From IMG/VR virus record IMGVR_UViG_3300005911_000002, positions 9,213 through 73,212 of that record: a DNA stretch of 64,000 nucleotides; one strand, 5' to 3'. Origin of the DNA: a virus. Below are positions 9,659-47,206 of this stretch, in pieces. The translations under genes and the position numbers were made by a program. A model generated the notes under the pieces. The model was given only the letters and a program-made list of their open reading frames with translations. It made no database searches and had not been told where the DNA came from. How positions within the stretch are numbered: the first letter of the stretch is position 1; every line of letters begins with the position of its first letter.

Positions 9659-9684
9659 GAAAGAGGCCCGGGGGCCTCTTTTTT
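9659..9684. terminator. Probably bidirectional terminator between convergent operons
   Basis: AAGAGGCC/GGCCTCTT stem with a T-run on the plus strand. Confidence 0.75.
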
Positions 9685-9788: not shown

Positions 9789-11603
9789 TCATGACTGTCT
9801 ACCACACATACTCAACAACTTATACACCGAAGCCATCTTATTCTTAGCGTTCCAAGTATCCTTAGTTACGGAGGTAGGTCCTGGAGCAAACGGTTTCAAT
9901 GCCTTAGCCTGTGTTATCGGTTCCGGCACCTTCTCCAGTGGAACCTTGGTATCGGTGTTTGGTTTTACTACACCTTTTATCTTCTTTGTACTACTACTTG
10001 TTCCTGATGGAGTTGAAACCATCGACATCTTATGAAGATTAGCACCTATGCCATGCACGCCCTGGGCGATATTGTTATTCATGGTAGAGGGTGCTCCAGG
10101 CGTTGTTATTGTCGCAGGTGTGATTGGTACTTTGGCCATATCACTCATAGACGTAGCCCCTTCCTTTGGTGCAGTCACGAGCTTAGATATGTTTCTGAAA
10201 GTGTTCCCGGTGCTGTTTCCAATATTACCAATGCCGGCATTGCCGATAGGGGTAATTGGGAGTGTCATATTTCCAGCAGCTTTTATCTCAGCAGCAACCT
10301 TGTTGTGTGAGAGTACGTCGTTTAGACCTTCGATAACAGTGCTATCCTTCGAAGACTGTTTCGTTAACTTTCTTAACGTAGATATATTAGAGTCTATTTG
10401 ATCACTATCGAAATGAAACCTGTCATATTCTGGAGACCATGACTCCCAGTCGATTACGGTGGGTTTTGCCTTGTCGGATATAAATATGTTCCCGCCGTGA
10501 ATATCATTGTGACTTATTTGTTTCTTTTTTAAGAACCCTCGCAAATCCTCAAGACCTTTTATCGCAGGCTCGTACATCTTTTCCTCCTTCCCCTGAATTA
10601 TGTCCGCAACACTCATCCCGGGAGCCCTGGTCATTTTAAACCAATCTTTTCCCTTAGAGTGTATCTCTGGCGTAAGTGTGTCCCCCTTTGACATTGCATA
10701 AAATTTCAACTCGTTAGCCATCCGTTCTTGCCAATTAGACGGCTCGATAGTACCACCGTCAAATATCGCCTTTCTTGAGAACTGTTTTTTTACCAGTTTT
10801 TTGTACATGGTAATTAGTGCTGTTGGGGATTCAATTGTTAGCGCTGCAATCTTCTCAATTGCCGTTGTCTCTAACCCCTCCCGAGATACACTCGAAACCT
10901 TATGTATATGTGAATGTGGGTTTGCATGTCCTGGTAATTTATGTGTAGTATTTTCCGTTCGTTTTATTAATCTTCCTAGTATATCATATATGTTCTGGCG
11001 TGTATATGCGTCACCCCTAGAGCTTGCAACTGTCTCGTCTACTGTCTTAGTTATTCCTGGCATTACTTGTTTTGCGTAAGAGTTCGAGTACTTAGTATAA
11101 CGCCCGGCATCGTCTACCGACATCTTATCTATGAATGTCTGGATGCTGGCTACCTTCTCTTCCACGGGAAGGGCCTCCGCAACCTTCTCACCCTTAAGCG
11201 ATCCGAATAACTTCTTCTTGAAATCTTCGATAGACATGATAGTCATCGACCCAAAGAATTTAGGTGAATCATAATGCTTAAGGTACGCATTCTTGGCGGA
11301 GATAGGTGTGCTGAACCCAAGCATCACCTTATCCTCATCGTACTTACCAGTCTTTGGAAAGTTCTGATGAACCACGTAGACTTCCTTAGGCTCTTCAACA
11401 GGTCCGACGTATACGTCAAGCTTGTCGCCATCGGTACCCCTGCTTCCGAGAATCTCACCATAATGATTACGCATCATGGTGAAGCCCCCTTTCCAATGTC
11501 TTTTCGAACCGGGCTTATTTTCTACGTGGATAGTAATGCCATGTCGTTTTACCGTACCGATAAATGGGTACTCCTTCCGATTTCTTTTCGGAGGAGGACC
11601 CAT
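9789..11603 (-). CDS. Multidomain protein: phage inorganic pyrophosphatase-like (InPase) domain, kinase-like domain and low-complexity tail
   Basis: HYGEI..GTDGDKLDVYVG..YDEDKVMLGF (InPase); HNDIHGGNIF..VIDWE (APH/RIO-type kinase catalytic loop). Confidence 0.75.
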   Translation of the reverse strand: MGPPPKRNRKEYPFIGTVKRHGITIHVENKPGSKRHWKGGFTMMRNHYGEILGSRGTDGDKLDVYVGPVEEPKEVYVVHQNFPKTGKYDEDKVMLGFSTPISAKNAYLKHYDSPKFFGSMTIMSIEDFKKKLFGSLKGEKVAEALPVEEKVASIQTFIDKMSVDDAGRYTKYSNSYAKQVMPGITKTVDETVASSRGDAYTRQNIYDILGRLIKRTENTTHKLPGHANPHSHIHKVSSVSREGLETTAIEKIAALTIESPTALITMYKKLVKKQFSRKAIFDGGTIEPSNWQERMANELKFYAMSKGDTLTPEIHSKGKDWFKMTRAPGMSVADIIQGKEEKMYEPAIKGLEDLRGFLKKKQISHNDIHGGNIFISDKAKPTVIDWESWSPEYDRFHFDSDQIDSNISTLRKLTKQSSKDSTVIEGLNDVLSHNKVAAEIKAAGNMTLPITPIGNAGIGNIGNSTGNTFRNISKLVTAPKEGATSMSDMAKVPITPATITTPGAPSTMNNNIAQGVHGIGANLHKMSMVSTPSGTSSSTKKIKGVVKPNTDTKVPLEKVPEPITQAKALKPFAPGPTSVTKDTWNAKNKMASVYKLLSMCGRQS

Positions 11604-11692: not shown

Positions 11693-12811
11693 TTACCTAC
11701 GATCCGTAAGTGCACCATATCCAGAAGAAGCGGCCATTATCCCGCCGAATGTTCCGGGTGCGTAACTAGCTACGTCGGTTATTTTGTTCGTAATCGCCTG
11801 GGTACCGAGATTTTTTTTGGCAGTTGTGAATTTAGATCCTAGCGCTTCGTTTTTTGATATCTGGGAGTCTATTCGGGACTCATTAGCTTTTAGCGCATCG
11901 GTATATACGCCTCTATTAAGTGTCAGATTCTCAGGATCCAATTTTTTAGTTATGCTAGCTCTTGTTTTTGAGAAACCATCCAATTTTCCTGTACCTTTCC
12001 TAAAGTTTCTATCAGCGGTACCCACATCTTCAGCAAGACCCATTAACTTCTGAAGCCTAGCAGGTTCTTGCTTAGCATACCACTTTCTAAACGCAACTCC
12101 ACCCACAAGAGCACCTATTGGGATAATCATAGAAAGAGCTCTATCAGTGAATGTTCTATCATCACGATATCTATCGTTATCTCCCTGAGATCTTTCAGCT
12201 GTTTTCTTTTCATCGGAACTGCCGAACAGAATATTAGTAAGTGCAGCTGCACCTGTAAGTCCTCCGGTTGTTTTAATCAGGTCCATCTCTAACGAAGCAT
12301 CTGAATCATCAAGTCGCTTAGTAGACTTACCTATTAAACTCGTGGCGTCGTCCTGCCTTATTTGATTAACGTCTAGACGTCCCTGGAGATAATTTCCAAC
12401 CTCGCCAGCGTTCCGACTTTCTGGATTGTTATCCAAGATACCTTTGGTTTTATCATACAGCTTTCGCTCTCTTTCACGTCCCAACCCGTGGTGTACAAGC
12501 CTGCTATTCGGATCGATTATAGTCTTTGTGGTTGGGCTCAAACCCATACTTTTCATAGCTGCGCCTTCCGCCGCTGTGTGCATAGTTGCTCGTCGATTCT
12601 CTACGCCACTTATCATTTTCTTAAGACTGTTGCCCTCATCTCCTAACCCGCTTAAATTATGAGACGTCATTCGGATGGTTTTCTTTAAATACTTCTGCAA
12701 TGCGCTGTACCTGCCAGCAACCAATAGCGGTGATGCCATAGCCGCTACGCCAAGTCCCGCTGCTGCATAATCCCCAACAACCCATTCTGCCTTCTTAATC
12801 TTACTAGTCAT
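11693..12811 (-). CDS. Two-module membrane/coiled-coil protein, putative virion or ejection protein
   Basis: Four hydrophobic Gly/Ala-rich helices flanking helical segments; KTA at the module junction. Confidence 0.5.
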   Translation of the reverse strand: MTSKIKKAEWVVGDYAAAGLGVAAMASPLLVAGRYSALQKYLKKTIRMTSHNLSGLGDEGNSLKKMISGVENRRATMHTAAEGAAMKSMGLSPTTKTIIDPNSRLVHHGLGRERERKLYDKTKGILDNNPESRNAGEVGNYLQGRLDVNQIRQDDATSLIGKSTKRLDDSDASLEMDLIKTTGGLTGAAALTNILFGSSDEKKTAERSQGDNDRYRDDRTFTDRALSMIIPIGALVGGVAFRKWYAKQEPARLQKLMGLAEDVGTADRNFRKGTGKLDGFSKTRASITKKLDPENLTLNRGVYTDALKANESRIDSQISKNEALGSKFTTAKKNLGTQAITNKITDVASYAPGTFGGIMAASSGYGALTDRR

Positions 12812-12832: not shown

Positions 12833-14269
12833 TTAAAATCTAACTCGGCGCCGGACCATCGGTCTTACGCTAGCGTTAGTTAAGTTTAATGGTTGTGAGA
12901 ATAGCTGATCTACTCTCATTTTGTTTTTCTTCTTTTCTATCTCTTCGTAAGTATCCGGGAAGAAACCTCCCGAGCCAGCTATCCCCGCACCGCCTACTAT
13001 TGCAGCGGCTGGGTACCCCATGCCACCCCGAGCTTTCTCCAGCAACTCCTCAGTGCGGTCACGGTCAGTAAATGCCGGCAAGTGTTCGTCGGTTGCGTCG
13101 ATATAGTTCTTCCGGGAACTCGAAAGATCACCGTCAGCGTGGCTTTTAATCGCCTTTCGCGCGGCAACTGCATTATCACTGGCAGTCCCAAGGTTCTTGT
13201 GGGCAACACCTTGTTCCATCGAAGGTGTTGTGTCGGAAAGGTTGCGCATGGTATTTTTAGCACTATCAAAAGCGTCGTTGGCCTTAACCCTACTATTATT
13301 AAGCTTTTCCGCCTTCCATTGTTCTGATTTCCACATATTCCTAGTTTTAACTACCTGGTCATCGAGGCCTTTGTACCTAGCAGCGCCATCCTTAAGAACT
13401 TTCTCTAACCCCTTGATCTTCCTACCTTTTAAATAAGCATAGATAGCCCCCCCAGCAGCAATGGTTGTCCCTACTCCTGCAAGTATAATCCTCATGGCTT
13501 GGTTGATTGTTGTGTCCTCAGCTAATTTGTAGTTCTTGTTATTCTGCTCTTCTGAGTACATTCTAGACCCAAGAATAGTCCCAGAGGCCAGCATACCGCC
13601 CCCAACTAATCCGCTAAATCTTGCTCTATCGTATGTGTATTCTCCGACGTCACTTAGCTCCTGTAGCTCGGAACCCTTACGTTTAAATTCATTCAGTGTA
13701 TTGATCATATCTGTTTTAGTTTTATTAACATGCCCCATATAATCGGGCTTTCTGGCCATCGTGCCCTGTAAATCGTCGAGGTGTCCCCTAGCTGCTTTCA
13801 GGTTTATGGCCGAATCTGCCATATCATTCTGTTTAGCATGAACTTGGTCAGAAAGATCTTTTATCATACTCCGTGCTCGTGAATAGGACTCTGTTGGAAG
13901 GCGCTCGGCGTCCTGCTTAAGTGCCATTATTTTACTTTTCAGATCCTCTATGTCAGCCACATTCTGCTTAAATATACCCTCCGCTCTGAGTGCCTTATCT
14001 GTCCTGCTAGCAAGATCGGCCATAACCTCAGGACCATTTTGAAATATCTTCTGAGCATCTGCATTACGTGATGTTGCCTCAAGGAACTCAGCCCCTATGT
14101 CTGCAAGGTCTTCTCTTCGTTTCTTAAGCTCTGGCATAAGTTTTTTTAACTTGTGCCTTGCGCCTGCACCCATCAAAGCTATAGCAGAACCTACAGCAAT
14201 AAGTACCGCCGGTACCTTATAGTTCATAGCTGGTGCTGGCTTTCTATCTTCTGAATAATATAGTCCCAT
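12833..14269 (-). CDS. Two-module membrane/coiled-coil protein, putative virion or ejection protein
   Basis: TM-coil-TM architecture twice, separated by NYKLAE. Confidence 0.5.
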   Translation of the reverse strand: MGLYYSEDRKPAPAMNYKVPAVLIAVGSAIALMGAGARHKLKKLMPELKKRREDLADIGAEFLEATSRNADAQKIFQNGPEVMADLASRTDKALRAEGIFKQNVADIEDLKSKIMALKQDAERLPTESYSRARSMIKDLSDQVHAKQNDMADSAINLKAARGHLDDLQGTMARKPDYMGHVNKTKTDMINTLNEFKRKGSELQELSDVGEYTYDRARFSGLVGGGMLASGTILGSRMYSEEQNNKNYKLAEDTTINQAMRIILAGVGTTIAAGGAIYAYLKGRKIKGLEKVLKDGAARYKGLDDQVVKTRNMWKSEQWKAEKLNNSRVKANDAFDSAKNTMRNLSDTTPSMEQGVAHKNLGTASDNAVAARKAIKSHADGDLSSSRKNYIDATDEHLPAFTDRDRTEELLEKARGGMGYPAAAIVGGAGIAGSGGFFPDTYEEIEKKKNKMRVDQLFSQPLNLTNASVRPMVRRRVRF

Positions 14270-14282
14270 GATTCCTCCAAAT

Positions 14283-17200
14283 TTATTCTATAACGGACGG
14301 GCCGTAAACATATCTAGTAAACATAGATGATTCTGGTCCAGCTATGTGAGTACTATCTCCAAACGCTACTCCCTTCTGTAACGATCCTTTGAGCTCTCTG
14401 TACCCAAGACGCTGTAACCAGTCCTGGTTCATAAGTGGAGACCTGTTAGTTCCAATTATAACCTTGTCGGCCTTTATCGGAGTTGTAAACACTCTAACTG
14501 TTTCCACACCCTCGTTTAGAAGAGCTTCCATCATCTTATCATCTATCATTGACCTGATAGGAAATCCTGACACACTTTCAGCCAGACGTTTCCCAACAGA
14601 AAATTCTACATCCATTTCTTTAACTGAGTTCTCATTATAATGGTTTACAAACGATGTGTCAACTATGTCTCCAGGAACTACTGATGATGATGTTCCTGCA
14701 TCTGTCACCCTGGAAAATTTACCCATTGACCTCGTAACTACTTCTGCAGTAGATCTCTTAATCCCAACTCCTGCAGATTGGTACAGACTTGTTAACTCAT
14801 CAGCTATAAAATCTAGCGCCGCGTCTGCACCTTTAATGTCCTTAATATCCATTGGATGTATATTTCCATAGCTAACAGAATCCCCAGCATGTATCATGTC
14901 CCCCTTTTTTACTTTAAGACCTACGGCCGCTGGCACATATAATTTTTTAGTTCCTATATTGACGTCCCAGCCGCCTATAGATGATTCATTAATATCCGTA
15001 ACAAACCCATCCTTAGGGGCTAGGATAGCTCTATCTTTAATCTTCTTAGGTAGTTGGGTTATCTGCCTTATTCTGTCTAAAGACCCGATAGCCCCAACAC
15101 TTGATCCTACTGTAGAACCAGTATGGAACACCCTCATAGCCATTTGAACAAGAGGCTCTCCTAATGTCTGGGCTGCCAACGTTCCTACGTTATCACCTTT
15201 TCCAGGAAGAATCCCGTTTGCCAGATAGCCATGGCATCTTCTGCAGATACCCTTTATAGCTTTGCACTTAAGAGGAGATCGTGCGTATACTTCCCTAATA
15301 CCATGATTCTTTAAGTTTTTAATTGCGTTAGCGTCAAGGTGCTGATCTTTTGGGTGAATAACCTTACCACCCACCCGGATGTTACGTACTGCAAATCTAT
15401 TAAGCACCTCTGGTGATGATACAGGGAACATTTTACCTTCTGATGTTTTACAGTCCTCGGTTGTAATAGTTATTCCAGACGAAGCAGCGAGTATCTCTTT
15501 ACTGAATGCACCCGGCTCTACAACCGACTTAGCTTTGGACACACCACCCATCCTGGCAGCATAACCCATACCCCAAAAGGCAGATGGGCTGAGTCCCGAT
15601 GCGTATGAATCCTTTGATATTATCGGAGGAACGGATCCACCAGGACCCTGGAACATAATAGGTGAACCGATTATCTGTGTAACCGGTGCCCACTGTCCTT
15701 TTGCCCCCGACGCGTCTACATAGTCGTAATATGTGTCTTTCATTCTATCTTTGATAACGTCTTGTATCTTACCTTGGATCTCAGCAGCGTTCTCTACGCC
15801 AGTAACCGTCTTTATAAGGTCGTCGACTTCTTTTATTGGTGCTAAATCATCGTAATTCAAAGACATGCCACGTCTTGTTGCATACGTATCTCCAATTAGT
15901 TTGACGTCTTTTAGAACCTTCCCTATTTGGTCGGGAGTATTCTTCACCACGCTCTTTACAGCAGCGGACAATGATCCGTCAGTAACTGCTTCGTTAATAT
16001 CAACACCATCTGGGAGCGCGTTATTCACCATGATACGTCCTATATTAGTCATTTTGCGTTTAACTTTTATCATATCATTTTCGGAAATATCGCCGGCAAG
16101 GTATGCTTCGAGAGCATCCGTAGTCGTTTTATATTTCTTGTCAGTACTCTTACCATCCTTAGTCATAGCATACAGCCCTGTTAGGTCGTCCCAGCTAGGC
16201 ATGTTCATAACCTCCCCCTTAGTTGGGTGAATTACGTTATTACTTGGAAGCATGAGGTGCGCCTCGGCCTCAGCCTTAGCAGTTACGGGAGTATGTACCA
16301 GTACCTTGTCACCGTCGAAGTCCATGTTAAACCCTTTAACAACCATCAAAGGTACACGTATAGATTTTCCCTGTACCAGCTTAGGCTTAAATGCCATAAC
16401 CCCATACTTGTGTAACGTCGGGGCTCTATTAACTATAACATGTTTTTCGTCCATAACCTTTCCCAGAATCCTGGCTGCTACCGGGGTCTTGTTATCCACT
16501 TCAGCCATAGCCTCGAACGGAGTCATACCTGCAGATAGCATCTTTCTTTTGATCATTGGTTCGAACATCTTATATGCCATCTCTTCCGGAATACCTATCT
16601 CATCTATATCCATCTTAGTGTCAATCGATACCACGCCAGCACCAGTTAGGTTCTGTCTTTTCTTGACCATCTTCTTTTGGAAGTATCCCTCTTTTGGGCT
16701 GTCCCCTGCGATTAGTTCTACAAGTCCTTTCTGGTTAGCTTTCTTTGGGTTGAGTCTAGCTTTATCTGAGGCAGTCGCGTATCCCATAAGCCTCTTAGTT
16801 TGATCGTAGATATCCTTAGCTATATTTTCCTGCTCACGCTGAGGAACAAACTTACTTTTCGATGCATTATTTAATAGTATTAAATCTTTATATAGATCAT
16901 TTAAAGGTGAGTTAATTAAATTCCCAGTATCATCTGGATACACGGGCCTAATCTTAGGTGGTACAACCGGCACATTGTGTAAAAAGAATGATCTAGCTGT
17001 GAGTTTCCCGTCTATCATGTTCTTGAGAAACCTCATCTTCTTGTTCAATTTATTCAGCGCACTACCTTCTGCAGTAGCCGCTTCTTTTTTTAGGTTAGCA
17101 AGCTCCTCCTCCGGAGATATTTTGGATAGCATGGCCTGCATAGCGTCCCCAAATTTTTTACCATCAACCTCAGTTCTGCCCGCTACTAAGTCGTCGTACT

Positions 17201-20200
17201 GCGTTTGGGTTATATCCAATATATTCTTAATAGCTGGCTCAAATACTGGGTTAGGTATCTTACGTGTAAGTGCTATGTGTGACCAATTCTCTCCGTCGGT
17301 GCCGCCAGTTATCTTAATATCAAATAACCCGTTTTTTTCCGGTAGCAATGTTTTTGCAATTACCACTTTTGCCTCAGTAACCTCTCCCTTAGACTGCCCT
17401 AAAATATCCCTGTCGGTAAGTGGTACAAGTTTTATCTGATCGCCACTCTTCTTAGGCTTTATCCCGGCGCCCTTTAAATAGTCCATAAACATATGGTATG
17501 AAAAAGTTGGGCTCGGTGTAGGTAGTTGTGATCCTGTGATATACGATCTCCAAAATTCAGGGTTGTCCTGTGATTTATATATGGCTATGTCTCGGAGGTT
17601 GGCCTTAGCACCGTGTGCCATTAGAGAATACATCGGCAACATCCCTACGGTCTTCCCCCCAGACTTACCACCAGCAGTAGGAGTCTTATCGAATCCTGTC
17701 GGCCCATAATAACTTCTAGCAGAGAACCCCTTATCCTCTTTGTATTTTAGTTTATAAATATATTGCTTTCCCCAAAGAACCTTGTCGGTAGTCTCTTCCC
17801 CCTCTACCATGAGTTTCTCATTGGGCTTTATTCCTAGTTCATCAGCTTTTTTTTTAACCGAAGTATAATAACTTTCATCGCTAAACCCTGGAACCATTAT
17901 AGGCGCACCTTGCGCATCCGCAACCCTGCCGAGAACAACTTCGTGCTCCTGTCCAACGTTCAATCTCTTCTGTACTGGTAGAGGTGACATGATCAACCCT
18001 ATCTTCTCACCATTAGGAGCCGTCGGGGCTTTCTCATCTGGGAATACTGCAGAAATTATACCCTTGTTACCGTATCGTCCGGAAACCTTATCACCCTTCT
18101 TTGCTTGCTCGGATGTTTTTACCTCTATGAAAATAGCCTTACCAGTATCGCGTACTGATATAACTTCACCGGAAGCTCCATGCTCCCATCTAACTATCTT
18201 TTCCCTGAAAGGACTAGACAATGTAGAATGCACTTTTGCCAAAAGCTTGTCTTCCTCGGACAACGACTTTTCTACAAGGTATGCGGCGATCACACTTCCG
18301 TCGTGAACCTTCGACCCTTTCTTAACAATACCATCCTGATCCAAGTTACTTGTCTCCAGGGAGGATAACTTACCCATCGCAACGTTCTTAAAACGTGTGA
18401 AATCGAAGTGAGCTCCCTTTTTTGAAATCTCCATCTTGTACATATGCTCTGACGTCATCTTCTTGGCACCAGATTCAAACAGCACGATAGCATCCTCTGA
18501 ATTCATAGAATGATACGGCATATAAGCCACATTAAGATTAACGCCAAGAGCCAGTGTATCGTCTTTTTCATAGTTTGACCTCATAAGTTTATCGCCTTTC
18601 TTAACGGTGCTACCTTCTGATACAGATGCTTCTGTAGTAACGTAAGAACTATCCCCTATCTTGTAATTCTGGTAGAAGGGTAGTTTCTCCGTTTCACCAT
18701 TCTCATACTCGACGGTCATGCTCTTCTTTCCAACCGAAGTAACCTTCCCAGCTCCTTGTGCGGTAGGGACAGAATCCCGTGCCATAATCTTCTCGAAGGA
18801 GGTTCCTGTTCTGTCATCAAGTGTCTGTATAAGGGGGGCTTCTGGGTTCTTTAGTAGTAATGTCTGCCCTGCCATCTTGGCGGACATATTAACCCTGTTA
18901 CCCATATTACTGCTTAAAAACGGAGTTAGGTTTGTTGATGGTGAGTATAGCTCAGTAGCATACCTGAATATATAATCCACCTCGCTAGAAGGAACTTTAT
19001 CCTCACTCCCCTTACTAACGGCATATACCTCGTCATCACGCCATTGTTTCTTATTGTAGTCATATTGGCCTGCAAATGCGATCGTGTACTTGTACATGTC
19101 ATCATTAGATACACTCTCTTCCTGGCCTGTTTTTGGATTATATAATTTCTTAGAAAACGCATCGCCCTTCTGCATAGTTCCAACAGGAAGTTTGACAGAA
19201 ATACCAGCAGCGTCATCCGGTGTATGGAGTGGATCCAGTACCCCTGCAGAAGAGCCGTAAACCATCATGGCTTTTTCGGTTATAGCATGGTCTGACTCAA
19301 TACCACCCTCACCTTTCCTGGTGTAGTGTATATCCTCATCTATAAAATTTAGCGGATTTACAAAATCTATAGGGGCTGCAAGCGACGACTGGTTAAATAG
19401 CGGTGTTATATTCCCATTAAGGTAGTTAGTTGGGACAATCTCTTTAATAGTTTTACGAGTTCTCATACGAACTTTTAACGCACCCTGGCTACTCTTGACC
19501 TTGCGTGGATTTAGTATATAATCGTCCGATAACATGGCTACCTCATCAACTGCCTTTGCAAAATACGAGTCATCCTTGTTATCCTGTTTCCCGTTGTCCT
19601 TGAAAACCTCGAGTATCCTTGATGACGTAGCTAACAGGGTTTTGGCATCCATCTTTTCGAAGGATGTTCCGAGAGTTTTCTCAGTTGTTTTTTTGTCGAG
19701 GACTGTGTCGTTAAACCTGTCCTCCACAGCTCCCTCGGCGGCGTCTATATCTTTGTATGCTTTGTATGTATAGTTTGTTGCAAAGTTTAAAAAGTCAGAC
19801 TCATGCTTGCTACCCCTAGAAGAGTTCGCTTCAAAAAGTTCTGGCCCCCATGCTTCTCGCATATCAGAATCAGGTATATCCAGGTGTGTAAGTATCGAGT
19901 ACACCGGATATTTTCTGCCTTTAAGTACAACAGTGAATATCTTCTTTACAGGGTCAAGAGACATTGTTAGGTTGTGTCCTTTTTGGAGGTTCAACTTGGC
20001 CTCGATCTCCCCGTTTTTCTTCACTTCGGTGTATACTCCAGACCGCAGCCTGAGCATTTTGGTTACCTTGAATTCGGTACCACCCACGATATATGTGCCA
20101 GCAGCTGTTCTAACGGGCATATCCCCAATCTTGACCTTAGCCTTATCAATTAGCTCAGTACCAACCCTAAAGGAAAAGGTTCCGTAAATAGGTACAGTCA

Positions 20201-20393
20201 GGGACTTATCGCTTTCCAGGAGTTTCCTGAATTTTTCAGGGTTTATTACATCCGCGTTGTTTGTATTAATACTTAGCTTGTCTAGTGAGAGTGATCTGCT
20301 ACCGTCCGTTATTGGGAACGCTGCTTCCTTGTATTTCTCAAATACCTCAGCGAGTCTATCGTTAAATTCCTTGGCACTTTTTATATTATACAT
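14283..20393 (-). CDS. Phage DNA-directed RNA polymerase, fused beta-beta' single chain (~2036 aa)
   Basis: beta: NSEDAI, GDKVSGRYGNKG. beta': NRAPTLH, NMDFDGD, RSPLKC..GICRRCHG, GEPLVQMAMRVFHTG. Start moved to ATG 20393 (AGGGGA SD; a promoter lies inside the longer ORF). Confidence 0.93.
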   Translation of the reverse strand: MYNIKSAKEFNDRLAEVFEKYKEAAFPITDGSRSLSLDKLSINTNNADVINPEKFRKLLESDKSLTVPIYGTFSFRVGTELIDKAKVKIGDMPVRTAAGTYIVGGTEFKVTKMLRLRSGVYTEVKKNGEIEAKLNLQKGHNLTMSLDPVKKIFTVVLKGRKYPVYSILTHLDIPDSDMREAWGPELFEANSSRGSKHESDFLNFATNYTYKAYKDIDAAEGAVEDRFNDTVLDKKTTEKTLGTSFEKMDAKTLLATSSRILEVFKDNGKQDNKDDSYFAKAVDEVAMLSDDYILNPRKVKSSQGALKVRMRTRKTIKEIVPTNYLNGNITPLFNQSSLAAPIDFVNPLNFIDEDIHYTRKGEGGIESDHAITEKAMMVYGSSAGVLDPLHTPDDAAGISVKLPVGTMQKGDAFSKKLYNPKTGQEESVSNDDMYKYTIAFAGQYDYNKKQWRDDEVYAVSKGSEDKVPSSEVDYIFRYATELYSPSTNLTPFLSSNMGNRVNMSAKMAGQTLLLKNPEAPLIQTLDDRTGTSFEKIMARDSVPTAQGAGKVTSVGKKSMTVEYENGETEKLPFYQNYKIGDSSYVTTEASVSEGSTVKKGDKLMRSNYEKDDTLALGVNLNVAYMPYHSMNSEDAIVLFESGAKKMTSEHMYKMEISKKGAHFDFTRFKNVAMGKLSSLETSNLDQDGIVKKGSKVHDGSVIAAYLVEKSLSEEDKLLAKVHSTLSSPFREKIVRWEHGASGEVISVRDTGKAIFIEVKTSEQAKKGDKVSGRYGNKGIISAVFPDEKAPTAPNGEKIGLIMSPLPVQKRLNVGQEHEVVLGRVADAQGAPIMVPGFSDESYYTSVKKKADELGIKPNEKLMVEGEETTDKVLWGKQYIYKLKYKEDKGFSARSYYGPTGFDKTPTAGGKSGGKTVGMLPMYSLMAHGAKANLRDIAIYKSQDNPEFWRSYITGSQLPTPSPTFSYHMFMDYLKGAGIKPKKSGDQIKLVPLTDRDILGQSKGEVTEAKVVIAKTLLPEKNGLFDIKITGGTDGENWSHIALTRKIPNPVFEPAIKNILDITQTQYDDLVAGRTEVDGKKFGDAMQAMLSKISPEEELANLKKEAATAEGSALNKLNKKMRFLKNMIDGKLTARSFFLHNVPVVPPKIRPVYPDDTGNLINSPLNDLYKDLILLNNASKSKFVPQREQENIAKDIYDQTKRLMGYATASDKARLNPKKANQKGLVELIAGDSPKEGYFQKKMVKKRQNLTGAGVVSIDTKMDIDEIGIPEEMAYKMFEPMIKRKMLSAGMTPFEAMAEVDNKTPVAARILGKVMDEKHVIVNRAPTLHKYGVMAFKPKLVQGKSIRVPLMVVKGFNMDFDGDKVLVHTPVTAKAEAEAHLMLPSNNVIHPTKGEVMNMPSWDDLTGLYAMTKDGKSTDKKYKTTTDALEAYLAGDISENDMIKVKRKMTNIGRIMVNNALPDGVDINEAVTDGSLSAAVKSVVKNTPDQIGKVLKDVKLIGDTYATRRGMSLNYDDLAPIKEVDDLIKTVTGVENAAEIQGKIQDVIKDRMKDTYYDYVDASGAKGQWAPVTQIIGSPIMFQGPGGSVPPIISKDSYASGLSPSAFWGMGYAARMGGVSKAKSVVEPGAFSKEILAASSGITITTEDCKTSEGKMFPVSSPEVLNRFAVRNIRVGGKVIHPKDQHLDANAIKNLKNHGIREVYARSPLKCKAIKGICRRCHGYLANGILPGKGDNVGTLAAQTLGEPLVQMAMRVFHTGSTVGSSVGAIGSLDRIRQITQLPKKIKDRAILAPKDGFVTDINESSIGGWDVNIGTKKLYVPAAVGLKVKKGDMIHAGDSVSYGNIHPMDIKDIKGADAALDFIADELTSLYQSAGVGIKRSTAEVVTRSMGKFSRVTDAGTSSSVVPGDIVDTSFVNHYNENSVKEMDVEFSVGKRLAESVSGFPIRSMIDDKMMEALLNEGVETVRVFTTPIKADKVIIGTNRSPLMNQDWLQRLGYRELKGSLQKGVAFGDSTHIAGPESSMFTRYVYGPSVIE

Positions 20394-20427
20394 GAACGTT
20401 GTGTCCCCTTCATAACCGATTTCTCTA

Positions 20428-20456
20428 ATTCTATCACGTTCAAGATTTGTTGTCAA
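20428..20456 (-). promoter_or_regulatory. sigma70-type promoter of the RNAP gene
   Basis: TTGACA-17-TAGAAT with extended -10 TG. Confidence 0.8.
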
Positions 20457-20515
20457 TTTGCATAATATATTATATATTAACCCAGTAATAGGAAGGTGAC
20501 TAGGAAATATCATTC

Positions 20516-21007
20516 TGTCATGTTTTGACCCATAAATGTCATGTTTCGGGTCAAAAATGTCATGTTTCGGGTCAAAAATGTCATGTCTAAAAATCAGTGC
20601 TCACCTACTACTATACTATACTATAACTATTATATTTATATATATATAATAATAGAATACATGACAAAATACCAGAATTATTAATGGTAACTACTCATGT
20701 ACGGATTGAAAAAAATTATTAATTAGTGTTTCATTTTTTTTTATGGTTTCCCTAAGGGGGTACATTTTTTTTTCTACATTTTTGTCATGTCTGAGAGTAA
20801 ATGCCTTGGTACGACTGGTCGGAAGCGCGAGACATTTTGTTTTCAAAATGTCATGTCTAGTTTTGATAGAAGTCTGATATCCCCGTCTATGACTAGTCTA
20901 GACCCCTGTCAAAAACGTCATATTTTTGTCATGTCATTTTGTCCTGTTTGGGTATTTTTGTCCTGTTTTGTTTATGATCGCACATAGTTTTGTAACAATT
21001 GTTACAA
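20516..21007. repeat. Iteron array, AT-rich tract and palindrome: candidate replication origin
   Basis: TGTCATGT at 20516, 20537, 20558, 20579 (21-bp period), inverted at 20659, again at 20783, 20849, 20927; AT tract ~20607-20660; 18-bp palindrome at 20990-21007. Confidence 0.7.
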
Positions 21008-21036
21008 TTTTGGTATAAATGACCAAGGAGGGATTT

Positions 21037-21459: not shown

Positions 21460-21488
21460 TTGACAACAGAATTGTAATATGTTATGAT
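21460..21488 (+). promoter_or_regulatory. sigma70-type promoter of the head module
   Basis: TTGACA-17-TATGAT, extended -10. Confidence 0.8.
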
Positions 21489-23690: not shown

Positions 23691-23984
23691 ATGTTTACAA
23701 TATACAAAAAAACAAAACCGGTAGCTATGGTAGGGGTAGTTCAGGGAGTTGTCCTGGTATCCTCAAATACGCTACTTATCCACAACATTCTAAAGAATGT
23801 CCTTTCAAGACCTCATTTTGTCAGGGATAAGAAGGGGCATAAAGTCCAGACTAACGACAAGAATGTAATCATAGAGGATATCCTAAGAACTAAGGTATAT
23901 TCTCCATACCGGGTAGTAAAAGAGAATGCGTTGCTAGGTGCGACTAAATATGTACATAAGGTAGTGTTATACGATGTTAACTAA
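23691..23984 (+). CDS. Hypothetical protein
   Basis: AAGGAG SD; overlaps the next start. Confidence 0.55.
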   Translation: MFTIYKKTKPVAMVGVVQGVVLVSSNTLLIHNILKNVLSRPHFVRDKKGHKVQTNDKNVIIEDILRTKVYSPYRVVKENALLGATKYVHKVVLYDVN

Positions 23985-26001
23985 ATATGTTCAATGGGCG
24001 AGTGTGCTTCCTGACGGCCGACCCGCTAATTACCTGATCGACCCGAATGTTAAAGTAGCTGCGGCTGTTTTATCTGAGAGTGCCGAGATACATCCTGAAA
24101 TTGTGGAGTTCATCGAGAACCTACAGCCCGAGGATACCAAGAGCTATGTCCTAGCAATAGCTATGGGTTGTGGGGAGTTCTGGGGTTCCAACCTCAATGC
24201 GGATTACTTCGGGTGGGATGAACTATACCCGGCAGACCCCAAGGCCAAGTATGGCTTTAAAACTTTTATGGGTAACAAAATGTTCCGCAGGCATAAGCAT
24301 ACCGACACTAGCCCTTACTTTGGGAGAGTTGTTATGGTGGCGTACAATGAGCAGATGGGTCGGGTCGAGGTAATATACACACTTGATCACGACAAACCAG
24401 AGAATGACAAAACGCTTAGAAACATGGACAAGGGAATATTCCCACAAGTGTCTATGGGGTGTAAGATAGCGTATGATGTATGCACAGTTTGCGGGCATAG
24501 ATCGGACAACGGAAAAAGACGATGTGACCATATAAGACTTAGGAGAAATCATATTTATCCTGATGGAACTAAAGCTATGATGGATAATATACGACCTATA
24601 TTCTTTGATCTTTCCATAGTAGATGTTCCAGCGGATTGCACGGCCTGGAGTGTTAAGAAGGTAGCTTCTATGGCGTATATTCCTGATATGAAGATGTCGT
24701 CTATTAGCAAGAGAGTGCCATCCCAGACAATCGTAACAAACGACGTCAAAGAGTGGCTACCAGGAGCATTACTAGTAAACAGCGCTATGGATAATAGTGT
24801 GGATATTCCAGTAGAATCGTTAATGGAAAGAGTGTCTCCGGAGTCGTTACTTCATGGTATGATGCTTATGGGTATGAAGCCTAAGCCAAATGAGTTTTGC
24901 CGTATGATAAGTAAGATGTTTGGCATAGATACTCCTGAAACATTCTCGCCACACATCGTGGACAGTGTTCCAACGGATGAGTTTGCAGCGTTTAAAGATA
25001 TGATCTCTAAGGTAGTGAAGTCCGTTCCGGAGTTAGACGGCATAAAAGACTTTGTGAAAGATAGGACGTCAGCATCTCCGAGAGTACTAAGGATTGTCGT
25101 GGTTAAGAAATCACCTAAAGAAGTAATGGTTAAGAATGCTATGGAACATACTCCTATACAGGACACACTGAATAACTTGTACTTTATGCTGGGAGGCCAG
25201 ATGTCAGATATCGCTGTTAAAAGTGCATCAGTTATAGGGCTCCCAATATTACGTAGAGTTCTGGACTATTTTGACATTGCTAAAATGAGGCGGGTACTGG
25301 CATTTCTTGTCGGGGCACGCGTTATTAATCAGGGTACGAATATAGCAACAACGCCATATACTGGAGTATATGACAACTCAGCTGAGTTGGCTACATATAC
25401 GGATATTATGACAGGCATGCCCGCTGCTGTAAGTCTTCAAATGTTTAACAACATGACAGGTAAAACAGCTGGTATTGCATCTAAAGTATTGATACCACCA
25501 GCGGTAGCGTACGCTACAAAGGCGTATCTGGACTACAAAGTTAATCGGGATGGTGTTTCCACACCTACCCAGGAATTAGTTCGGAATAACCCAAAGATGA
25601 TGACGCTCTTACTTGCTATATCACCATGGTTAGCAAAGAAGACCGGTCTTAATGAAGCGTCCCTTCTACTGGGAGCGGGTGTAGCGGGTTACGGCGCTGG
25701 CCAAGTAGCCGCAAAGATGGCTTCGTATGATGAAATAATTCTTACAGATGACAACAGGGATGACATATTCACAAAGTTAGCGATGGAAAATATAACCCCG
25801 CAGAGAGCGGAGTTACTAAAGAATATAGCAGCGGTGTTTCTCGCTGGGGCAGGGATAGGTGCTGTTGTAGGTGTTTCACCTGCATCAGATGAGATTAAGG
25901 TAGAACCCCAACCTAGACCACAGCAGCAGAACCAACAGGAATTGCGGGAACAGTACGCTAAGAGATATTATAGCATGTTAAAAAGGAGGGGAGAGTTATG
26001 A
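23974..26001 (+). CDS. Prohead maturation protease (HK97/herpes-type fold inferred) with long C-terminal extension
   Basis: NxNxDxF, FRRHKH (His), VSMGC (Ser), CTVCGH..CDH, FFDLSIVDVPAD; located upstream of scaffold and capsid genes. Confidence 0.7.
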   Translation: MLTKYVQWASVLPDGRPANYLIDPNVKVAAAVLSESAEIHPEIVEFIENLQPEDTKSYVLAIAMGCGEFWGSNLNADYFGWDELYPADPKAKYGFKTFMGNKMFRRHKHTDTSPYFGRVVMVAYNEQMGRVEVIYTLDHDKPENDKTLRNMDKGIFPQVSMGCKIAYDVCTVCGHRSDNGKRRCDHIRLRRNHIYPDGTKAMMDNIRPIFFDLSIVDVPADCTAWSVKKVASMAYIPDMKMSSISKRVPSQTIVTNDVKEWLPGALLVNSAMDNSVDIPVESLMERVSPESLLHGMMLMGMKPKPNEFCRMISKMFGIDTPETFSPHIVDSVPTDEFAAFKDMISKVVKSVPELDGIKDFVKDRTSASPRVLRIVVVKKSPKEVMVKNAMEHTPIQDTLNNLYFMLGGQMSDIAVKSASVIGLPILRRVLDYFDIAKMRRVLAFLVGARVINQGTNIATTPYTGVYDNSAELATYTDIMTGMPAAVSLQMFNNMTGKTAGIASKVLIPPAVAYATKAYLDYKVNRDGVSTPTQELVRNNPKMMTLLLAISPWLAKKTGLNEASLLLGAGVAGYGAGQVAAKMASYDEIILTDDNRDDIFTKLAMENITPQRAELLKNIAAVFLAGAGIGAVVGVSPASDEIKVEPQPRPQQQNQQELREQYAKRYYSMLKRRGEL

Positions 26002-28057: not shown

Positions 28058-28086
28058 TTGACAAGTAGTGGCAGATATGTTATACT
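28058..28086 (+). promoter_or_regulatory. sigma70-type promoter of the capsid operon
   Basis: TTGACA-17-TATACT, extended -10. Confidence 0.85.
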
Positions 28087-31312: not shown

Positions 31313-31792
31313 ATGCGAGTAGTAATAGAACCTAAAACACAACTACCATATCAGAATAAAGAGTTATCAGATGATAGATATAAGCAGCTACTGCTGTTTA
31401 AGTGTATCGAAGAGATAAAAAAAGTAATGGCTTCGGGGATATTTAAACACCCTACGGGAGCACTTATGAACTCTATAAACGGGTATGTTGTTGGCGAATA
31501 TATCATTATCTATTCAGATAAACAATACGCGACAGCGCAGGAGTTCGGGGTTAAGCCCCATGCTATGTGGTATCTACTTGGGAAGACCGTCCCGATTAAA
31601 ATATTCAACACATTTGGCGGTCCTCCTAAAACGATCTATAGGAAGGTTACCTTCGAAGCGTTGTCCAGGGGTAAGTGGCATCATCCGGGTTCTCCGGGGA
31701 AATACTTTATGAAAACAGGTATTGACAAAGCAATGTCCCAGGCAACGGAGTTAAGGATGAAGATGATAAGTGGGGGGAATGTATTCATATGA
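31313..31792 (+). CDS. Putative neck/tail completion protein
   Basis: TGALMNSI, YA..QEFG, HPG.PGKYFM; HK97 gp10-like pattern. Confidence 0.55.
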   Translation: MRVVIEPKTQLPYQNKELSDDRYKQLLLFKCIEEIKKVMASGIFKHPTGALMNSINGYVVGEYIIIYSDKQYATAQEFGVKPHAMWYLLGKTVPIKIFNTFGGPPKTIYRKVTFEALSRGKWHHPGSPGKYFMKTGIDKAMSQATELRMKMISGGNVFI

Positions 31793-32502
31793 TTAAAATA
31801 GCAGGATATCAGGGAGTTTCTACTGTAGACTACCCTGGAAAACTTTCGTTTGTGATGTATACTTATGGGTGCCCCATGAGGTGCCCTTACTGTTTCAATA
31901 GTGCTCTCGTAGATCCATGTATGGAAAAAGATATGACATTCCTAACAAAAGATGATATCTACTCTGTGCTGGATTCTAGAAAAGATTTTGTAGAGGCTAT
32001 CGTTATATCTGGTGGAGAGCCTACCCTACATTCAGGGTTAATACCGTTTATTAGGGAGCTCAGGGATAGGTATCCGTTAGCTATCAAAGTAGATACTTCC
32101 GGGATAAACCCAGGAGTCCTGCTAAAACTTATGGATGGGGTGGACTATATCGCCATGGATGTGAAAACATCTTTTGATAAGTATAGTATGTTCTCCCCGG
32201 ATGTAACTGCTTGGAGGAGAATACTCGAGAGTATGGTATTTTTAAATAATAACGGTAGGTGTGACTATGAGTTTAGAACTACCGTGTGGAAGGGCGGATT
32301 CAATCTAGAGGATGCAGTTTTAGTAGCTAGATTTATGTCAGGCGGTGCTACATATTATCTACAGAACTTGGTGGATAACGCTAGCCCGATGCTTCTCCCA
32401 GACAAAGTCGGGGATGAGAGATATACGAAGAAAGAAGTGCTTGCGATAGCAAAAGAACTCGGGGATTCCGGAGTAACTGTAAAACTTAGGGGGTTTGATT
32501 AA
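31789..32502 (+). CDS. nrdG: Anaerobic RNR activating radical-SAM enzyme
   Basis: STVDYPG, CPMRCPYCFN, SGGEPT, AMDVK, YEFRTT. Confidence 0.9.
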   Translation: MIKIAGYQGVSTVDYPGKLSFVMYTYGCPMRCPYCFNSALVDPCMEKDMTFLTKDDIYSVLDSRKDFVEAIVISGGEPTLHSGLIPFIRELRDRYPLAIKVDTSGINPGVLLKLMDGVDYIAMDVKTSFDKYSMFSPDVTAWRRILESMVFLNNNGRCDYEFRTTVWKGGFNLEDAVLVARFMSGGATYYLQNLVDNASPMLLPDKVGDERYTKKEVLAIAKELGDSGVTVKLRGFD

Positions 32503-44565: not shown

Positions 44566-46493
44566 TATGCCCTCCCCGTAGCAGTTAGTACTTGTTGCAT
44601 CAGCCCTTCAATTTTAGACATATATTCCCTGGATTCATCTATATTTACTTTTGATAATTCAGCATAGGATGCCATTATATTACCCGACAGCCTATTAGCA
44701 TAATCGACTGAAGTAAACTCAGTTATAAGTATATCTAATACCGCAAGCATATCTACACTAGTGGTTTCGAGCTTTAGTTTCCTCAGCTCCTGACACAAGC
44801 TACCTTCGTATGTAGATGTTGTAGGCGTTGCCTTAAATACATCTTTAGTTGCACCCTTGCCAATGTCATCCCCGAGTTTTTTAAGACCCGCGGTATCGGC
44901 TGTGCTCTTTATATCCTCTAAAAAATTATCTTTAAAATCTTTAACGGGGGTAGAGTCTAACTTGTTATACGCAGATATTACACTGACTACTTCAGTATTA
45001 AACGAAGTTAGCATGGTCTCGGTAGTTGACCGTAGTTCCGGTGTCATGACTTGCGCTCCAGTTATAAGGTCCTCTACAATCCTAAGGGCAGCACTAGCTT
45101 TATATACAACCTCGGTAGTATCCGGCTCCTCCCACGCAGACACTGCAGTTGCTGCCGATGTATACGCTGACTTTGCCACGAGAGGCATACTGGCTACAGC
45201 TGCACGCCCAACACTTGACGTTGCAATAGAGTCCAGATATGAAAGCATATCAGTAAACGAATCGTAAACGTCACGATAATACGGTAACCCCTTCGACCTA
45301 GATGTCGATTGCGTATACGCCGCGGTCTTCTGCTCCAGGTCTTCGATTTTACCTTTTATAGCTCCCGGCATTACTTTTTGTAAAAAATTAGATCGAGCAT
45401 ATTTCTCGGTATCGCTGAACAACGACATAGCCATATTAAGTTGATATCGTATGCCACTGGTATTCTCCGAGTTATATAGCGTGTAAGATACTATATTTGA
45501 GAGAATATCACTGAACGATACCCCATATAAAATACCCTGCACTAAAATCCCTTCCAAGGTTGTTGTATCGTACTGACGACTAAAGCTTATAAGATTTGCC
45601 GATGGCATGCTTCTCCCCATTAGTTGGGCAACTTGCTCTGGTGTGAATGACCCGGACATCTCTTGTAGTGCTATGGATGTAATAATACTTTCTGGAGTAG
45701 CTCCCGACGTCATACCTACTATAACCTGCGTGGCAACCCCGTTAGGAAAGTATTTTCCGAATATACTCGATATCATAGTGTTCTGGGCTGTACCTTGCAT
45801 AACTGCGGAGAGTATTTCTGGAGGAAGTAGTGCCCTAAGCTCATTATAGGCAGCGTCTTTTACAATATCACTCGTAAGGTTACGTCCCACAAGACCATTT
45901 AGCAGGGCCGCGGATATCTTAGAGTCTATTGTTGTAGGGAGTATTTCCTGTGGGAGTGTTTTATTAGATACCATTTGTATCAGACCCCAAGCATCACTTA
46001 TGGTACTTGACATCCCAGATAGTACAGTTCTTAATACCTGGGCCCCAAGGTCATATCTGTACGGCTCAGTGCTAACTATATTCTTTACAGTTGAGATTGT
46101 GCCAGATACGTCCGGTATGTCGTAGTTACCGCTCAATGCCTCACCCAGAAGAGAGCTTATTGGGCTAGCCATATTCTCCAGGGCGCTAACAGCCTCGTCT
46201 CTAAGGGTAGTGGCATGGGATATCGCATTAAAACCCATCCCTAGTATAGTTGTTGGAGAAGTTGTCATCCTTTGCAGCATAGACGCTTGTATTCGGTCCG
46301 TAGTACTCGTGTCTTTTAGATTATCAATGGGTGTCATATTATACTGGTCCATTGTTTTTTTCATCTGACCTGCCAATGCTAGTGCAGTTCCTTCTTCTTT
46401 ATCAAGGGTCTGGTTCTTCTGCTTTTTCCACTCCTTGTACTCTTTCAGAGAATTACGCACCTCACTGTCAGTATACCATGTGTATGTAGTCAT
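44565..46493 (-). CDS. Hypothetical helical virion-associated protein
   Basis: 642 aa, translationally coupled within the baseplate operon. Confidence 0.6.
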   Translation of the reverse strand: MTTYTWYTDSEVRNSLKEYKEWKKQKNQTLDKEEGTALALAGQMKKTMDQYNMTPIDNLKDTSTTDRIQASMLQRMTTSPTTILGMGFNAISHATTLRDEAVSALENMASPISSLLGEALSGNYDIPDVSGTISTVKNIVSTEPYRYDLGAQVLRTVLSGMSSTISDAWGLIQMVSNKTLPQEILPTTIDSKISAALLNGLVGRNLTSDIVKDAAYNELRALLPPEILSAVMQGTAQNTMISSIFGKYFPNGVATQVIVGMTSGATPESIITSIALQEMSGSFTPEQVAQLMGRSMPSANLISFSRQYDTTTLEGILVQGILYGVSFSDILSNIVSYTLYNSENTSGIRYQLNMAMSLFSDTEKYARSNFLQKVMPGAIKGKIEDLEQKTAAYTQSTSRSKGLPYYRDVYDSFTDMLSYLDSIATSSVGRAAVASMPLVAKSAYTSAATAVSAWEEPDTTEVVYKASAALRIVEDLITGAQVMTPELRSTTETMLTSFNTEVVSVISAYNKLDSTPVKDFKDNFLEDIKSTADTAGLKKLGDDIGKGATKDVFKATPTTSTYEGSLCQELRKLKLETTSVDMLAVLDILITEFTSVDYANRLSGNIMASYAELSKVNIDESREYMSKIEGLMQQVLTATGRA

Positions 46494-47206
46494 AATTTGC
46501 TTACTTTCTCTTTTAGTATATTTGAAATTCGCAGTCTAACTGAGCTAACCCACCTGGGTGACTTATTTTCCTGTATTGCAATATCTTGTGTAGATTTTCC
46601 GCTAAGTAGACTATCCATTATGCGATTTTCGGTCTCATCAAGTTCATACCTAGTCATCTCAAGTAAATCTTTTGGTGTGTAGTTCCGCACAACGGAATCA
46701 TCTCCACGTCCAACGTCAGCTTCTGGTTCGAGAGTATAATCTTTCCGAACCATTCTTCGTAGATCCCTTACTTGAGTTTGTGGTATATTCATGTGGGTAG
46801 CTATCTCAAGCTCGTCAGGATCTCTCCCAAGGGATTCAGTGAGCTCCGTTACAGCCGTGTTATATGGTGAGATAAGTTGTATTTTACTTTCCGGGATTCT
46901 CCCCGTGTTTTGATGATTTCCAACATACCTATATAATTTTCTCAGATAGTAATCAACATGAGTTCCTATGGCAGCTTTCCCAGGTTTGTACGTTTCCAGA
47001 GCTTTGCCGGCTAGCCTATACCCCTCAGCCTTTATAGCTTGGAACGGTATCGGGGCGTTTCTATACTTACTTGCATGGTGAACTATAGCAGGTGTGAGGG
47101 ACTCCATTAAATCATCAAGGGACTCTGTACTCCCCGTATCTTTCCAATCAGTCCATAACGCAAGCTGCCTATCAAATCTTGTTGTGGTATTCGGCTGAGA
47201 TTCCAT
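46490..47206 (-). CDS. Sigma70-family RNA polymerase sigma factor
   Basis: Region 2 (IVHHASKY..KALETYKP..IGTHV), RIPE, region 3 LGRDPDELEIA, region 4 HTH. Confidence 0.8.
   Translation of the reverse strand: MESQPNTTTRFDRQLALWTDWKDTGSTESLDDLMESLTPAIVHHASKYRNAPIPFQAIKAEGYRLAGKALETYKPGKAAIGTHVDYYLRKLYRYVGNHQNTGRIPESKIQLISPYNTAVTELTESLGRDPDELEIATHMNIPQTQVRDLRRMVRKDYTLEPEADVGRGDDSVVRNYTPKDLLEMTRYELDETENRIMDSLLSGKSTQDIAIQENKSPRWVSSVRLRISNILKEKVSKL

Follow-up and report, generated by a model that had tools for sequence, protein, structure and literature searches.

A single open frame on the minus strand of a 64,000-nucleotide stretch of viral DNA (bases 9213-73212 of the 73,212-bp linear IMG/VR virus record IMGVR_UViG_3300005911_000002, CheckV completeness 41%; hereafter the window) encodes a 2036-aa protein in which a bacterial-type RNA polymerase (RNAP) beta subunit continues directly into beta'. 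The gene spans 14283..20393, stop codon included, and the best explanation, which we regard as probable, is that its product forms the single-polypeptide catalytic core of a phage-owned, bacterial-type DNA-dependent RNAP that has its own sigma factor and for which alpha and omega genes were not found. The window gene belongs, as a divergent member, to a family that already exists but whose architecture is undescribed, and the enzyme is an undescribed architectural variant of the phage multisubunit-type RNAPs; the literature searched yielded no paper naming a fused bacterial-type beta-beta' in phages. The fused RNAP without a beta' Zn ribbon characterises a very large phage family that has hardly been described and that has its own sigma factor.

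Architecture of the fused polypeptide

Along the chain, Pfam identifies Rpb2_6 (residues 597-935, E 4e-39) and then, in order, Rpb1_1, Rpb1_2, Rpb1_3 and Rpb1_5 (residues 1125-1939), where residue numbers, here and throughout, refer to the 2076-aa translation from the first ATG of the frame. This domain order and the translated motifs confirm the first-pass annotation, a model's reading of the letters, which had described an open reading frame (ORF) of about 2036 aa with beta motifs followed by beta' motifs. The beta module comprises residues 41-1020 (17454..20393, minus strand), as delimited by alignment with Salmonella beta, by Rpb2_6 and by a Foldseek search with an AlphaFold2 (AF2) model of residues 41-640. 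No Pfam model matches the first 550 residues of the RNAP. The AF2 model, built from 53 family sequences, has a mean predicted local distance difference test (pLDDT) score of 92 and superposes best, by Foldseek, on bacterial beta chains (TMq 0.83-0.84, 20-21% identity, E ~3e-34). The beta' module, residues 1021-2076 (14283..17453, minus strand), is defined by the four Rpb1 domains, by alignment and by a phmmer search of the PDB, in which the best matches are bacterial beta' chains (E 1e-91). The likeness to the cellular enzyme that had been noticed at first reading holds over the whole length of the protein.

The two modules are joined without a seam. Specifically, at the junction (17424..17483, minus strand; located by the alignment and an AF2 model) the sequence DYLKGAGIKPKKSG is followed directly by DQIKLV, the C-terminal motif of beta running straight into the equivalent of the beta' 'DAIKIAL', with no linker and with about 17 N-terminal beta' residues missing. 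An AF2 model of residues 900-1340 is confident across the junction (pLDDT 93-98), and Foldseek matches it best to bacterial beta' chains.

Catalytic and structural motifs were placed in an alignment of 18 full-length relatives with Salmonella beta and beta', and their coordinates, all on the minus strand, were verified by translating the exact positions. The active-site lysine motif of beta, GDKVSGRYGNKG, lies at 18060..18095, and within it (GRYGNKG) K809, K817 and G818 are invariant among the 18 family sequences. The catalytic loop at 16308..16328 translates as NMDFDGD instead of NADFDGD, as the first-pass annotation had read it. The clamp helices are present. The bridge helix (15474..15599) aligns with Salmonella beta' 765-805, the trigger loop (15039..15158) is short and lacks the SI3 insert of E. 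coli, and the second Zn site (Zn2; 15234..15452) consists of C1688, C1750, C1757 and C1760, the first three of which are invariant in the 18 family sequences, with C1760 listed among the invariant columns too. All three elements had been recognised in the first-pass annotation and are now both aligned and translated.

The N-terminal Zn ribbon of beta' (Zn1, E. coli numbering 68-99) has been replaced by a short loop. At its site (17274..17330, minus strand; GLFDIKITGGTDGENWSHI), an alignment of the query and fused relatives with Salmonella beta' and the beta' of Rhizobium phage Y65 opens a gap of 32 columns in the query and likewise in each fused relative displayed, in agreement with the deletion reported at first reading. 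Relative to Salmonella and E. coli, the RNAP also lacks the last 36 beta' residues as well as beta 230-356, beta 934-1045 and beta' 946-1134, which we take to be lineage-specific inserts of these bacteria. Additionally, across residues 372-442 (~nt 19188-19400), which align with what are presumably the rifampicin-resistance clusters in Salmonella beta numbering, the rifampicin-pocket positions differ from Salmonella beta both in the query and across the family, which suggests a rifampicin-insensitive enzyme.

The open frame extends from 20513 to 14283 (14283..20513), and within it ATG 20393 is likely to be the start in preference to the first ATG, because the N-termini of relatives align only from about residue 40 and because a Shine-Dalgarno-like word, GAAGGGGA, and a promoter-like site fall inside the resulting 120-nt 'extension', which also overlaps a repeat array. 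The Shine-Dalgarno-like word precedes ATG 20393, and the sigma-70-like promoter candidate, a pattern match only, reads TTGACA-17-TAGAAT with an upstream TG at 20456-20428 (20428..20456, minus strand), 35 nt upstream of the RNAP start. The 2036-aa ORF is intact, and a 6.1-kb open frame carrying all catalytic motifs is well beyond chance.

Of the 11 copies of ACATGACA in the window, 8 fall in the 625-nt divergent intergenic region upstream of the gene (20394-21018), where chance would place 1.97 on average; four of them are phased at 21 nt (20516-20586) and adjoin a pure A+T tract (~20600-20680). The region coincides with the cumulative GC-skew minimum and with a switch in gene orientation, and could be an origin of replication or an array of operators. 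An upstream 16-mer repeat was considered as a genome-wide promoter and rejected: all five matches (at most 3 mismatches) lie in one intergenic region, so the repeat is a local array and gives no promoter consensus.

A large phage family apart from the sampled bacteria

Relatives of the window RNAP are abundant. At least 527 of 596 pattern-matched IMG/VR stretches encode one, and the best 80 of these each give one match of ~6 kb, on contigs of up to 192 kb, two of which have terminal repeats. A HMMER scan with residues 1000-1500 against a representative library of 1.8 billion proteins gave 8026 matches at E <= 0.001, and the best 150 of them (E <= 1.2e-83) are all of the fused phage type; at least 900 residues precede the beta' match in 127 of these 150, and the other 23 may be fragments. 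In a word-indexed protein search, 66 of the 120 matches listed are phage-type, with identity to the window RNAP of at most 35% among the matches listed. As judged from precomputed Pfam lists, about 27 of the 66 contain beta' in full (2000-3268 aa; intein or homing-endonuclease domains occur in the longer of these) and about 39 stop after the N-terminal half of beta'. The nearest relative found anywhere, P0122, is ~45-50% identical, and a single-protein related-locus search with the RNAP returned no close relatives in IMG/VR.

The distinguishing features recur throughout this family. The seamless junction and the loss of the Zn ribbon are found in over 150 clusters defined at 50% identity as well as in cultured phages, namely Salmonella phage Arash and Vibrio phages D69, D181 and D148. 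Among 216 family proteins, 170 have a short Cys-less loop at the Zn-ribbon site, 46 fit neither pattern and none has the Cys4 ribbon, which is present in 49 of 50 bacterial beta' rows. The catalytic loop of the window RNAP, NMDFDGD, is shared by 17 of the 216, and NADFDGD is the commonest form (93). With its junction, its missing Zn ribbon and its collinearity over the full length, the window protein belongs to the Arash/D69-type fused family (phrog_24349 + phrog_25354). Many family genes are stretched to 2400-3400 aa by intein/LAGLIDADG domains (PF14528, PF14890, PF03161, PF05204), including P0002, P0012, P0019, P0022, P0025 and P0034, and in Vibrio phages D181 and D148 a homing endonuclease gene lies between two RNAP halves; the split form may have arisen via such intein or homing-endonuclease invasions.

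For phylogeny, 44 family proteins were combined with 28 (beta') or 26 (beta) bacterial rows. The family rows were 1950-2200 aa long with both motifs, plus Arash and D69, with P0201 excluded because its junction was misplaced; the bacterial rows, hand-picked from 80 loci, represent 14 or more phyla, and Salmonella was added to them. In both trees, all 44 phage rows fall on one side of a branch with a Shimodaira-Hasegawa-like approximate likelihood ratio test (SH-aLRT) support of 100, opposite all sampled bacteria. Clustering within an ordinary bacterial clade would, according to the first-pass annotation, have refuted its reading, and the phylogeny places the enzyme outside. The beta' of Rhizobium phage Y65, encoded by a separate gene and retaining its Zn ribbon, is placed between the family and bacteria. 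The median tree distance is 1.9 within the family versus 1.0 among the sampled bacterial phyla.

Profile and genome searches point the same way. Scores of the NCBIfam models stay below every curated cut-off, both for the separate subunits (rpoC TIGR02386, 421 versus 963.5; rpoB PRK00405, 267 versus 896; TIGR02013, 242 versus 801) and for fused RpoBC (NF007172, 368 versus 5372; NF011417, 320 versus 4632). In 185,579 species genomes, the best 80 of at least 600 matches are ordinary rpoB-rpoC loci with at most 29% identity, which is the ceiling for identity to any bacterial beta or beta' among the matches listed. One of these best 80 is a genuine fused rpoBC of 2281 aa on a contig of a Paceibacterota metagenome-assembled genome (MAG; L086:172-7017). 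This protein has all 11 beta/beta' Pfam domains, its gene adjoins those of ribosomal protein S6 and single-stranded DNA-binding protein, and in the beta' tree it clusters with other Patescibacteria; it represents a separate fusion within bacteria that has no relation to the phage family. Natural fused rpoBC genes also occur in Helicobacter and Wolbachia.

Candidate partners, proposed assembly and possible delivery of the enzyme

The candidate specificity subunit is a sigma-70-family ORF of 238 aa at 46490..47206 (minus strand; Sigma70_r3 E 6e-8; phrog_351; RpoD_Cterm 2e-9, below its cut-off). Orthologues are found in all six other family genomes, and that of Arash sits where the annotated sigma Gp10 is expected. 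A structure prediction with the sigma ORF, which had been proposed as a check, places sigma on the clamp helices: the complex model of sigma with RNAP residues 1021-1420 scores 0.82 versus 0.01 for the best of three controls. Of 80 solved complexes, 58 attain this mark, as do 2 of 110 mismatched pairs. At least 64% of contacts recur between the runs, the partner pLDDT is at least 75, and the modelled interface lies between RNAP 1190-1261, the clamp helices, and sigma 50-70. Because sigma on the clamp helices is a textbook, much-solved pair, however, the model may pass only through its likeness to solved holoenzymes. Additionally, intergenic DNA, 8% of the window, holds 10 of the 26 sigma-70-like sites with at least 10 of 12 matches (odds ratio 7.2, p 1.7e-5); of these ten, nine point towards a gene start no more than 150 nt away and six carry an extended -10 TG. 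Such sites precede metabolic genes, baseplate genes and the RNAP gene itself, and further candidate promoters lie, for example, at 21460-21488 and 28058-28086.

No alpha (PF01000, PF01193) or omega (PF01192) gene was detected by hidden Markov models (HMMs) in the whole 73-kb record, which extends the absence of both subunits first noted for the window. No alpha match exceeds the cut-off in any of seven family records (this record, four IMG/VR genomes 88-100% complete, D69 and Arash), the sole match scoring 16.5 bits and containing three stop codons, and omega was found in none of the three family records searched, whereas the same alpha and omega models were positive in 14 of 14 control genomes. 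A single RNAP set is present in each of five relatives examined and in the record of the window.

In the fused chain, a full beta module, with its lobes, fork, flap and lysine motif, runs into a beta' module with clamp helices, a Mg-binding double-psi beta-barrel (DPBB), bridge helix, trigger loop and Zn2, and we propose that the covalent beta-beta' link most likely takes over the assembly role of the alpha dimer. As modelled, the core would pair with the 238-aa phage sigma-70-family protein via the canonical sigma2/clamp-helix contact, and the resulting holoenzyme may read phage promoters of the TTGACA / TGnTATAAT type. A pyrophosphatase-domain protein encoded in the same unit, to judge by its fusion to the polymerase in relatives, probably removes pyrophosphate (PPi).

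Several points weigh against this proposal of a self-sufficient phage core. The trees were run with LG+G4 in quick mode and with no archaeal outgroup, and the RNAP neighbours are not conserved, with 4 of 41 window proteins having any tblastn match in 82 family loci. The complex model cannot separate the phage core from the host core as the partner of sigma, and the sigma-70-like promoters, including that of the RNAP gene, could equally be read by host RNAP. Alpha independence is suggested by gene absence only, and host alpha could be used: the record is 41% complete, so an alpha-like gene could sit in its missing part, although six other family genomes lack one too, and absence by HMM would be compatible with a structural analogue of alpha as well as with use of host alpha. 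Additionally, bacterial beta-beta' fusions exist that did not lose alpha, as in Helicobacter, and the fused rpoBC of the Paceibacterota MAG was observed here. These fusions bear on one alternative, in which the covalent link is a convenience as in fused-rpoBC bacteria and the enzyme still assembles on a host alpha dimer (and omega). Fusion by itself would not prove alpha independence, given a canonical fused rpoBC beside ribosomal genes in the Paceibacterota MAG, and the beta and beta' folds of the phage enzyme are canonical; yet its identity to bacterial beta and beta' does not exceed 29%, phage RNAPs of the phiKZ/AR9 type function without alpha according to the available text of a published account (PMC7598289), and with hosts as varied as Salmonella, Vibrio and unknown anaerobes a conserved fit to the alpha of each would be improbable. 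We therefore consider reliance on host alpha unlikely. Far less credible still is that the gene is an ordinary bacterial rpoB-rpoC on a misclassified contig, a recent capture from one clade, or an assembly or frameshift artefact. Its best PDB and NCBIfam matches are indeed bacterial beta' and beta, but the record holds phage genes (baseplate J, GH108 lysin, family A DNA polymerase and others), the junction and Zn-ribbon loss recur across the clusters and cultured phages described above, the family stands apart from all sampled bacteria with a support of 100, and the low identity ceiling applies to all of the best 80 matches in bacterial genomes.

Whether the phage-owned core travels in the virion is more finely balanced. 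The odds that in this family the enzyme, possibly with sigma, is brought in with the virion so as to begin transcription at entry appear close to even or a little below, an estimate that draws on the proteomics of one relative, Arash, and on nothing in the window itself. In the mass spectrometry of Arash virions, Gp206 gave the most spectra of any protein (3516), with 1210 for Gp216 and 467 for the sigma factor Gp10 (PMC10585845); the RNAP signal thus exceeds that of every Arash structural protein, with sigma detected as well. The RNAP gene also immediately follows the portal gene in Arash and D69, but not in the window, and the last protein of the window operon has a pyrophosphatase domain matching PHROGs annotated as minor head or virion proteins. 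On the other side, 116 of 252 proteins were detected in the Arash preparation, primase, ligase and ribonucleotide reductase among them, and in the available text its authors offer carry-over of abundant proteins as an alternative (PMC10585845). We give an even chance to the alternative that the RNAP is not a virion component, that it is synthesised from a host-type promoter once the phage has entered and takes over middle and late transcription with the phage sigma, and that the Arash signal is such carry-over. Host RNAP could read the TTGACA-17-TAGAAT (TG) site 35 nt upstream of the RNAP start, which argues that the enzyme can be made after entry and need not be brought in, and the single RNAP set per genome is unlike the separate virion and non-virion sets reported for phiKZ-type phages (PMC7598289). 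The first-pass annotation had based packaging on K-x-A tripeptides, and this clue was rejected: the RNAP contains 9 against 15.2 +/- 3.2 in shuffles, the three downstream ORFs give z values of -1.15, -0.82 and +1.47, and the motif is not enriched in the RNAP or in these ORFs.

A further reading, which we put forward only tentatively and hold to be rather doubtful, is that the single chain, the lack of alpha, omega and Zn ribbon, the dedicated sigma and the attached or neighbouring pyrophosphatase are together an adaptation to delivery, whereby a sigma-loaded holoenzyme would be packed into the head, threaded through the tail, refold free of partners and transcribe independently of host RNAP. 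If so, the two coiled-coil proteins and the pyrophosphatase-domain protein co-transcribed with the RNAP would belong to the ejected set.

Should alpha and omega prove unneeded, a natural 230-kDa single chain would be the simplest cellular-type RNA polymerase known, the role of alpha in assembly could be tested directly with one recombinant protein and one small sigma, and the pair would provide an orthogonal, sigma-programmable transcription system. In addition, the fused gene is long and readily spotted, and it marks a very large clade of phages with genomes of ~160-190 kb that come from many habitats and in which most other genes cannot be recognised. The depth of the family, at a tree distance of 1.9 against 1.0, bears on the debate over whether phage RNAPs are ancient or fast-evolving captures. 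Finally, the beta' Zn ribbon has been implicated in bacterial termination and antitermination, and its family-wide loss is a natural experiment.

Genomic setting and comparison with known polymerases

The RNAP gene heads a unit of four co-oriented genes on the minus strand. The second, a 478-aa ORF (12833..14269), begins 13 nt past the RNAP stop and is followed by a 372-aa ORF (11693..12811). Both have an N-terminal hydrophobic helix of ~20 residues and then a predicted coiled coil, and they are possibly membrane-anchored proteins; atlas searches with the two gave only sub-threshold coiled-coil look-alikes, and no relatives were detected for either. The fourth, a 604-aa ORF (9789..11603), has an N-terminal InPase (pyrophosphatase) domain (Pfam PF18823, E 5.5e-32), and the unit ends in a terminator-like hairpin (9660..9681, minus strand) with a 9-bp stem, 5 G-C pairs and a T-rich tail. 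The InPase domain is fused to the RNAP in relatives, at the C-terminus in the nearest one, P0122, and inserted in beta in P0032; these fusions argue for a functional link between the two, presumably PPi removal. The three downstream ORFs gave no tblastn match in the 82 family loci, and no conserved accessory-subunit candidate emerged.

Elsewhere in the window, a 675-aa ORF (23974-26001, plus strand) weakly matches a head-maturation-protease PHROG and is among the few with a tblastn match in a relative, gp270 of Vibrio phage D69 (35% identity; L001:17224-18639). At 35004-36805 (plus strand), a serine-recombinase (Resolvase) ORF followed by an OrfB_IS605/Cas12f-like TNB ORF looks like an IS607-type insertion sequence (TnpA + TnpB) in a phage genome. 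Additionally, ThyX (87-785), an NrdG-like radical-SAM activase (31789-32502) and an anaerobic ribonucleotide reductase, NrdD, with an ATP-cone (40773-43181) are encoded on the plus strand, which suggests an anaerobic or facultative host.

The window RNAP shares with the bacterial RNAP core its domain order, folds, catalytic motifs (three Asp in beta', two Lys in beta) and a sigma-70-family partner. It differs in being at most 29% identical, in lacking the Zn ribbon, in that alpha and omega genes were not found alongside it, and in lying outside the sampled bacterial clade. Compared with bacterial fused RpoBC, it retains 5 Pfam domains versus 11 in the Paceibacterota protein.

The closest known counterparts are those of Arash, D69, D181 and D148, the D69 enzyme being ~29% identical over 92% of the length. 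Arash and D69 have in common with the window RNAP the seamless junction, the lost beta' Zn ribbon and the short trigger loop, and with its phage an orthologous sigma, alpha and omega not found, one RNAP set and, in their case, genomes of ~180 kb. Unlike the window gene, however, theirs is interrupted inside beta', near query residue 1489, which leaves beta-beta'N (1525-1527 aa) and beta'C (~610 aa), the halves being separated by small ORFs in D69, by a homing endonuclease in D181 and D148 and by 4.7 kb in Arash, and the Arash/D69 catalytic loop is AADYDGD rather than NMDFDGD. The Arash enzyme consists of Gp206 and Gp216, of which Gp206 was here found to be beta-beta'N. The published Arash annotation names the two parts 'beta' and 'beta prime', with fusion unmentioned in the available text (PMC10585845).

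The phiKZ/AR9-type RNAPs are likewise phage-encoded DPBB enzymes related to beta/beta' without alpha or omega, but, as described in the available text of two accounts, they comprise 4-5 polypeptides in two sets, virion and non-virion, with no recognisable sigma and a much greater divergence (PMC7598289, PMC7824862). The window RNAP, by contrast, is one chain in one set with a sigma present. Its PHROG matches to the phiKZ/AR9-type families are weak (E 1e-5 to 1e-26) compared with those to the unannotated phrog_24349 and phrog_25354 (1e-64 to 1e-92). The RNAP of crAss-like phages, a virion protein, and YonO resemble it in carrying both barrels on one polypeptide; they are without most cellular domains, whereas the window RNAP is collinear with bacterial beta and beta' throughout. 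Neither is detectable by cellular beta/beta' HMMs, according to the available text of the mReC study (PMC7481178).

That study, by Weinheimer and Aylward (2020), described the multisubunit-RNAP-encoding Caudovirales (mReC), uncultured tailed phages with deep-branching beta/beta', and lists 97 contigs (PMC7481178). As in the family examined here, these are IMG/VR tailed phages whose beta/beta' are found by cellular HMMs and form a clade apart from cells (PMC7481178). They differ in that the main text is silent on fusion of the subunits, using 'fused' only for crAssphage, that the study required NADxDGD, a rule which the NMDFDGD of the window RNAP fails, and that the eight capsids detected are of the Gp23 type, PF07068 (PMC7481178). 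A PF07068 capsid was found in none of seven fused-family genomes, the 41%-complete record of the window included, with Rhizobium phage Y65 positive as the one control (1/1). A link between the fused family and the mReC lineage is plausible, and the two sets may overlap.

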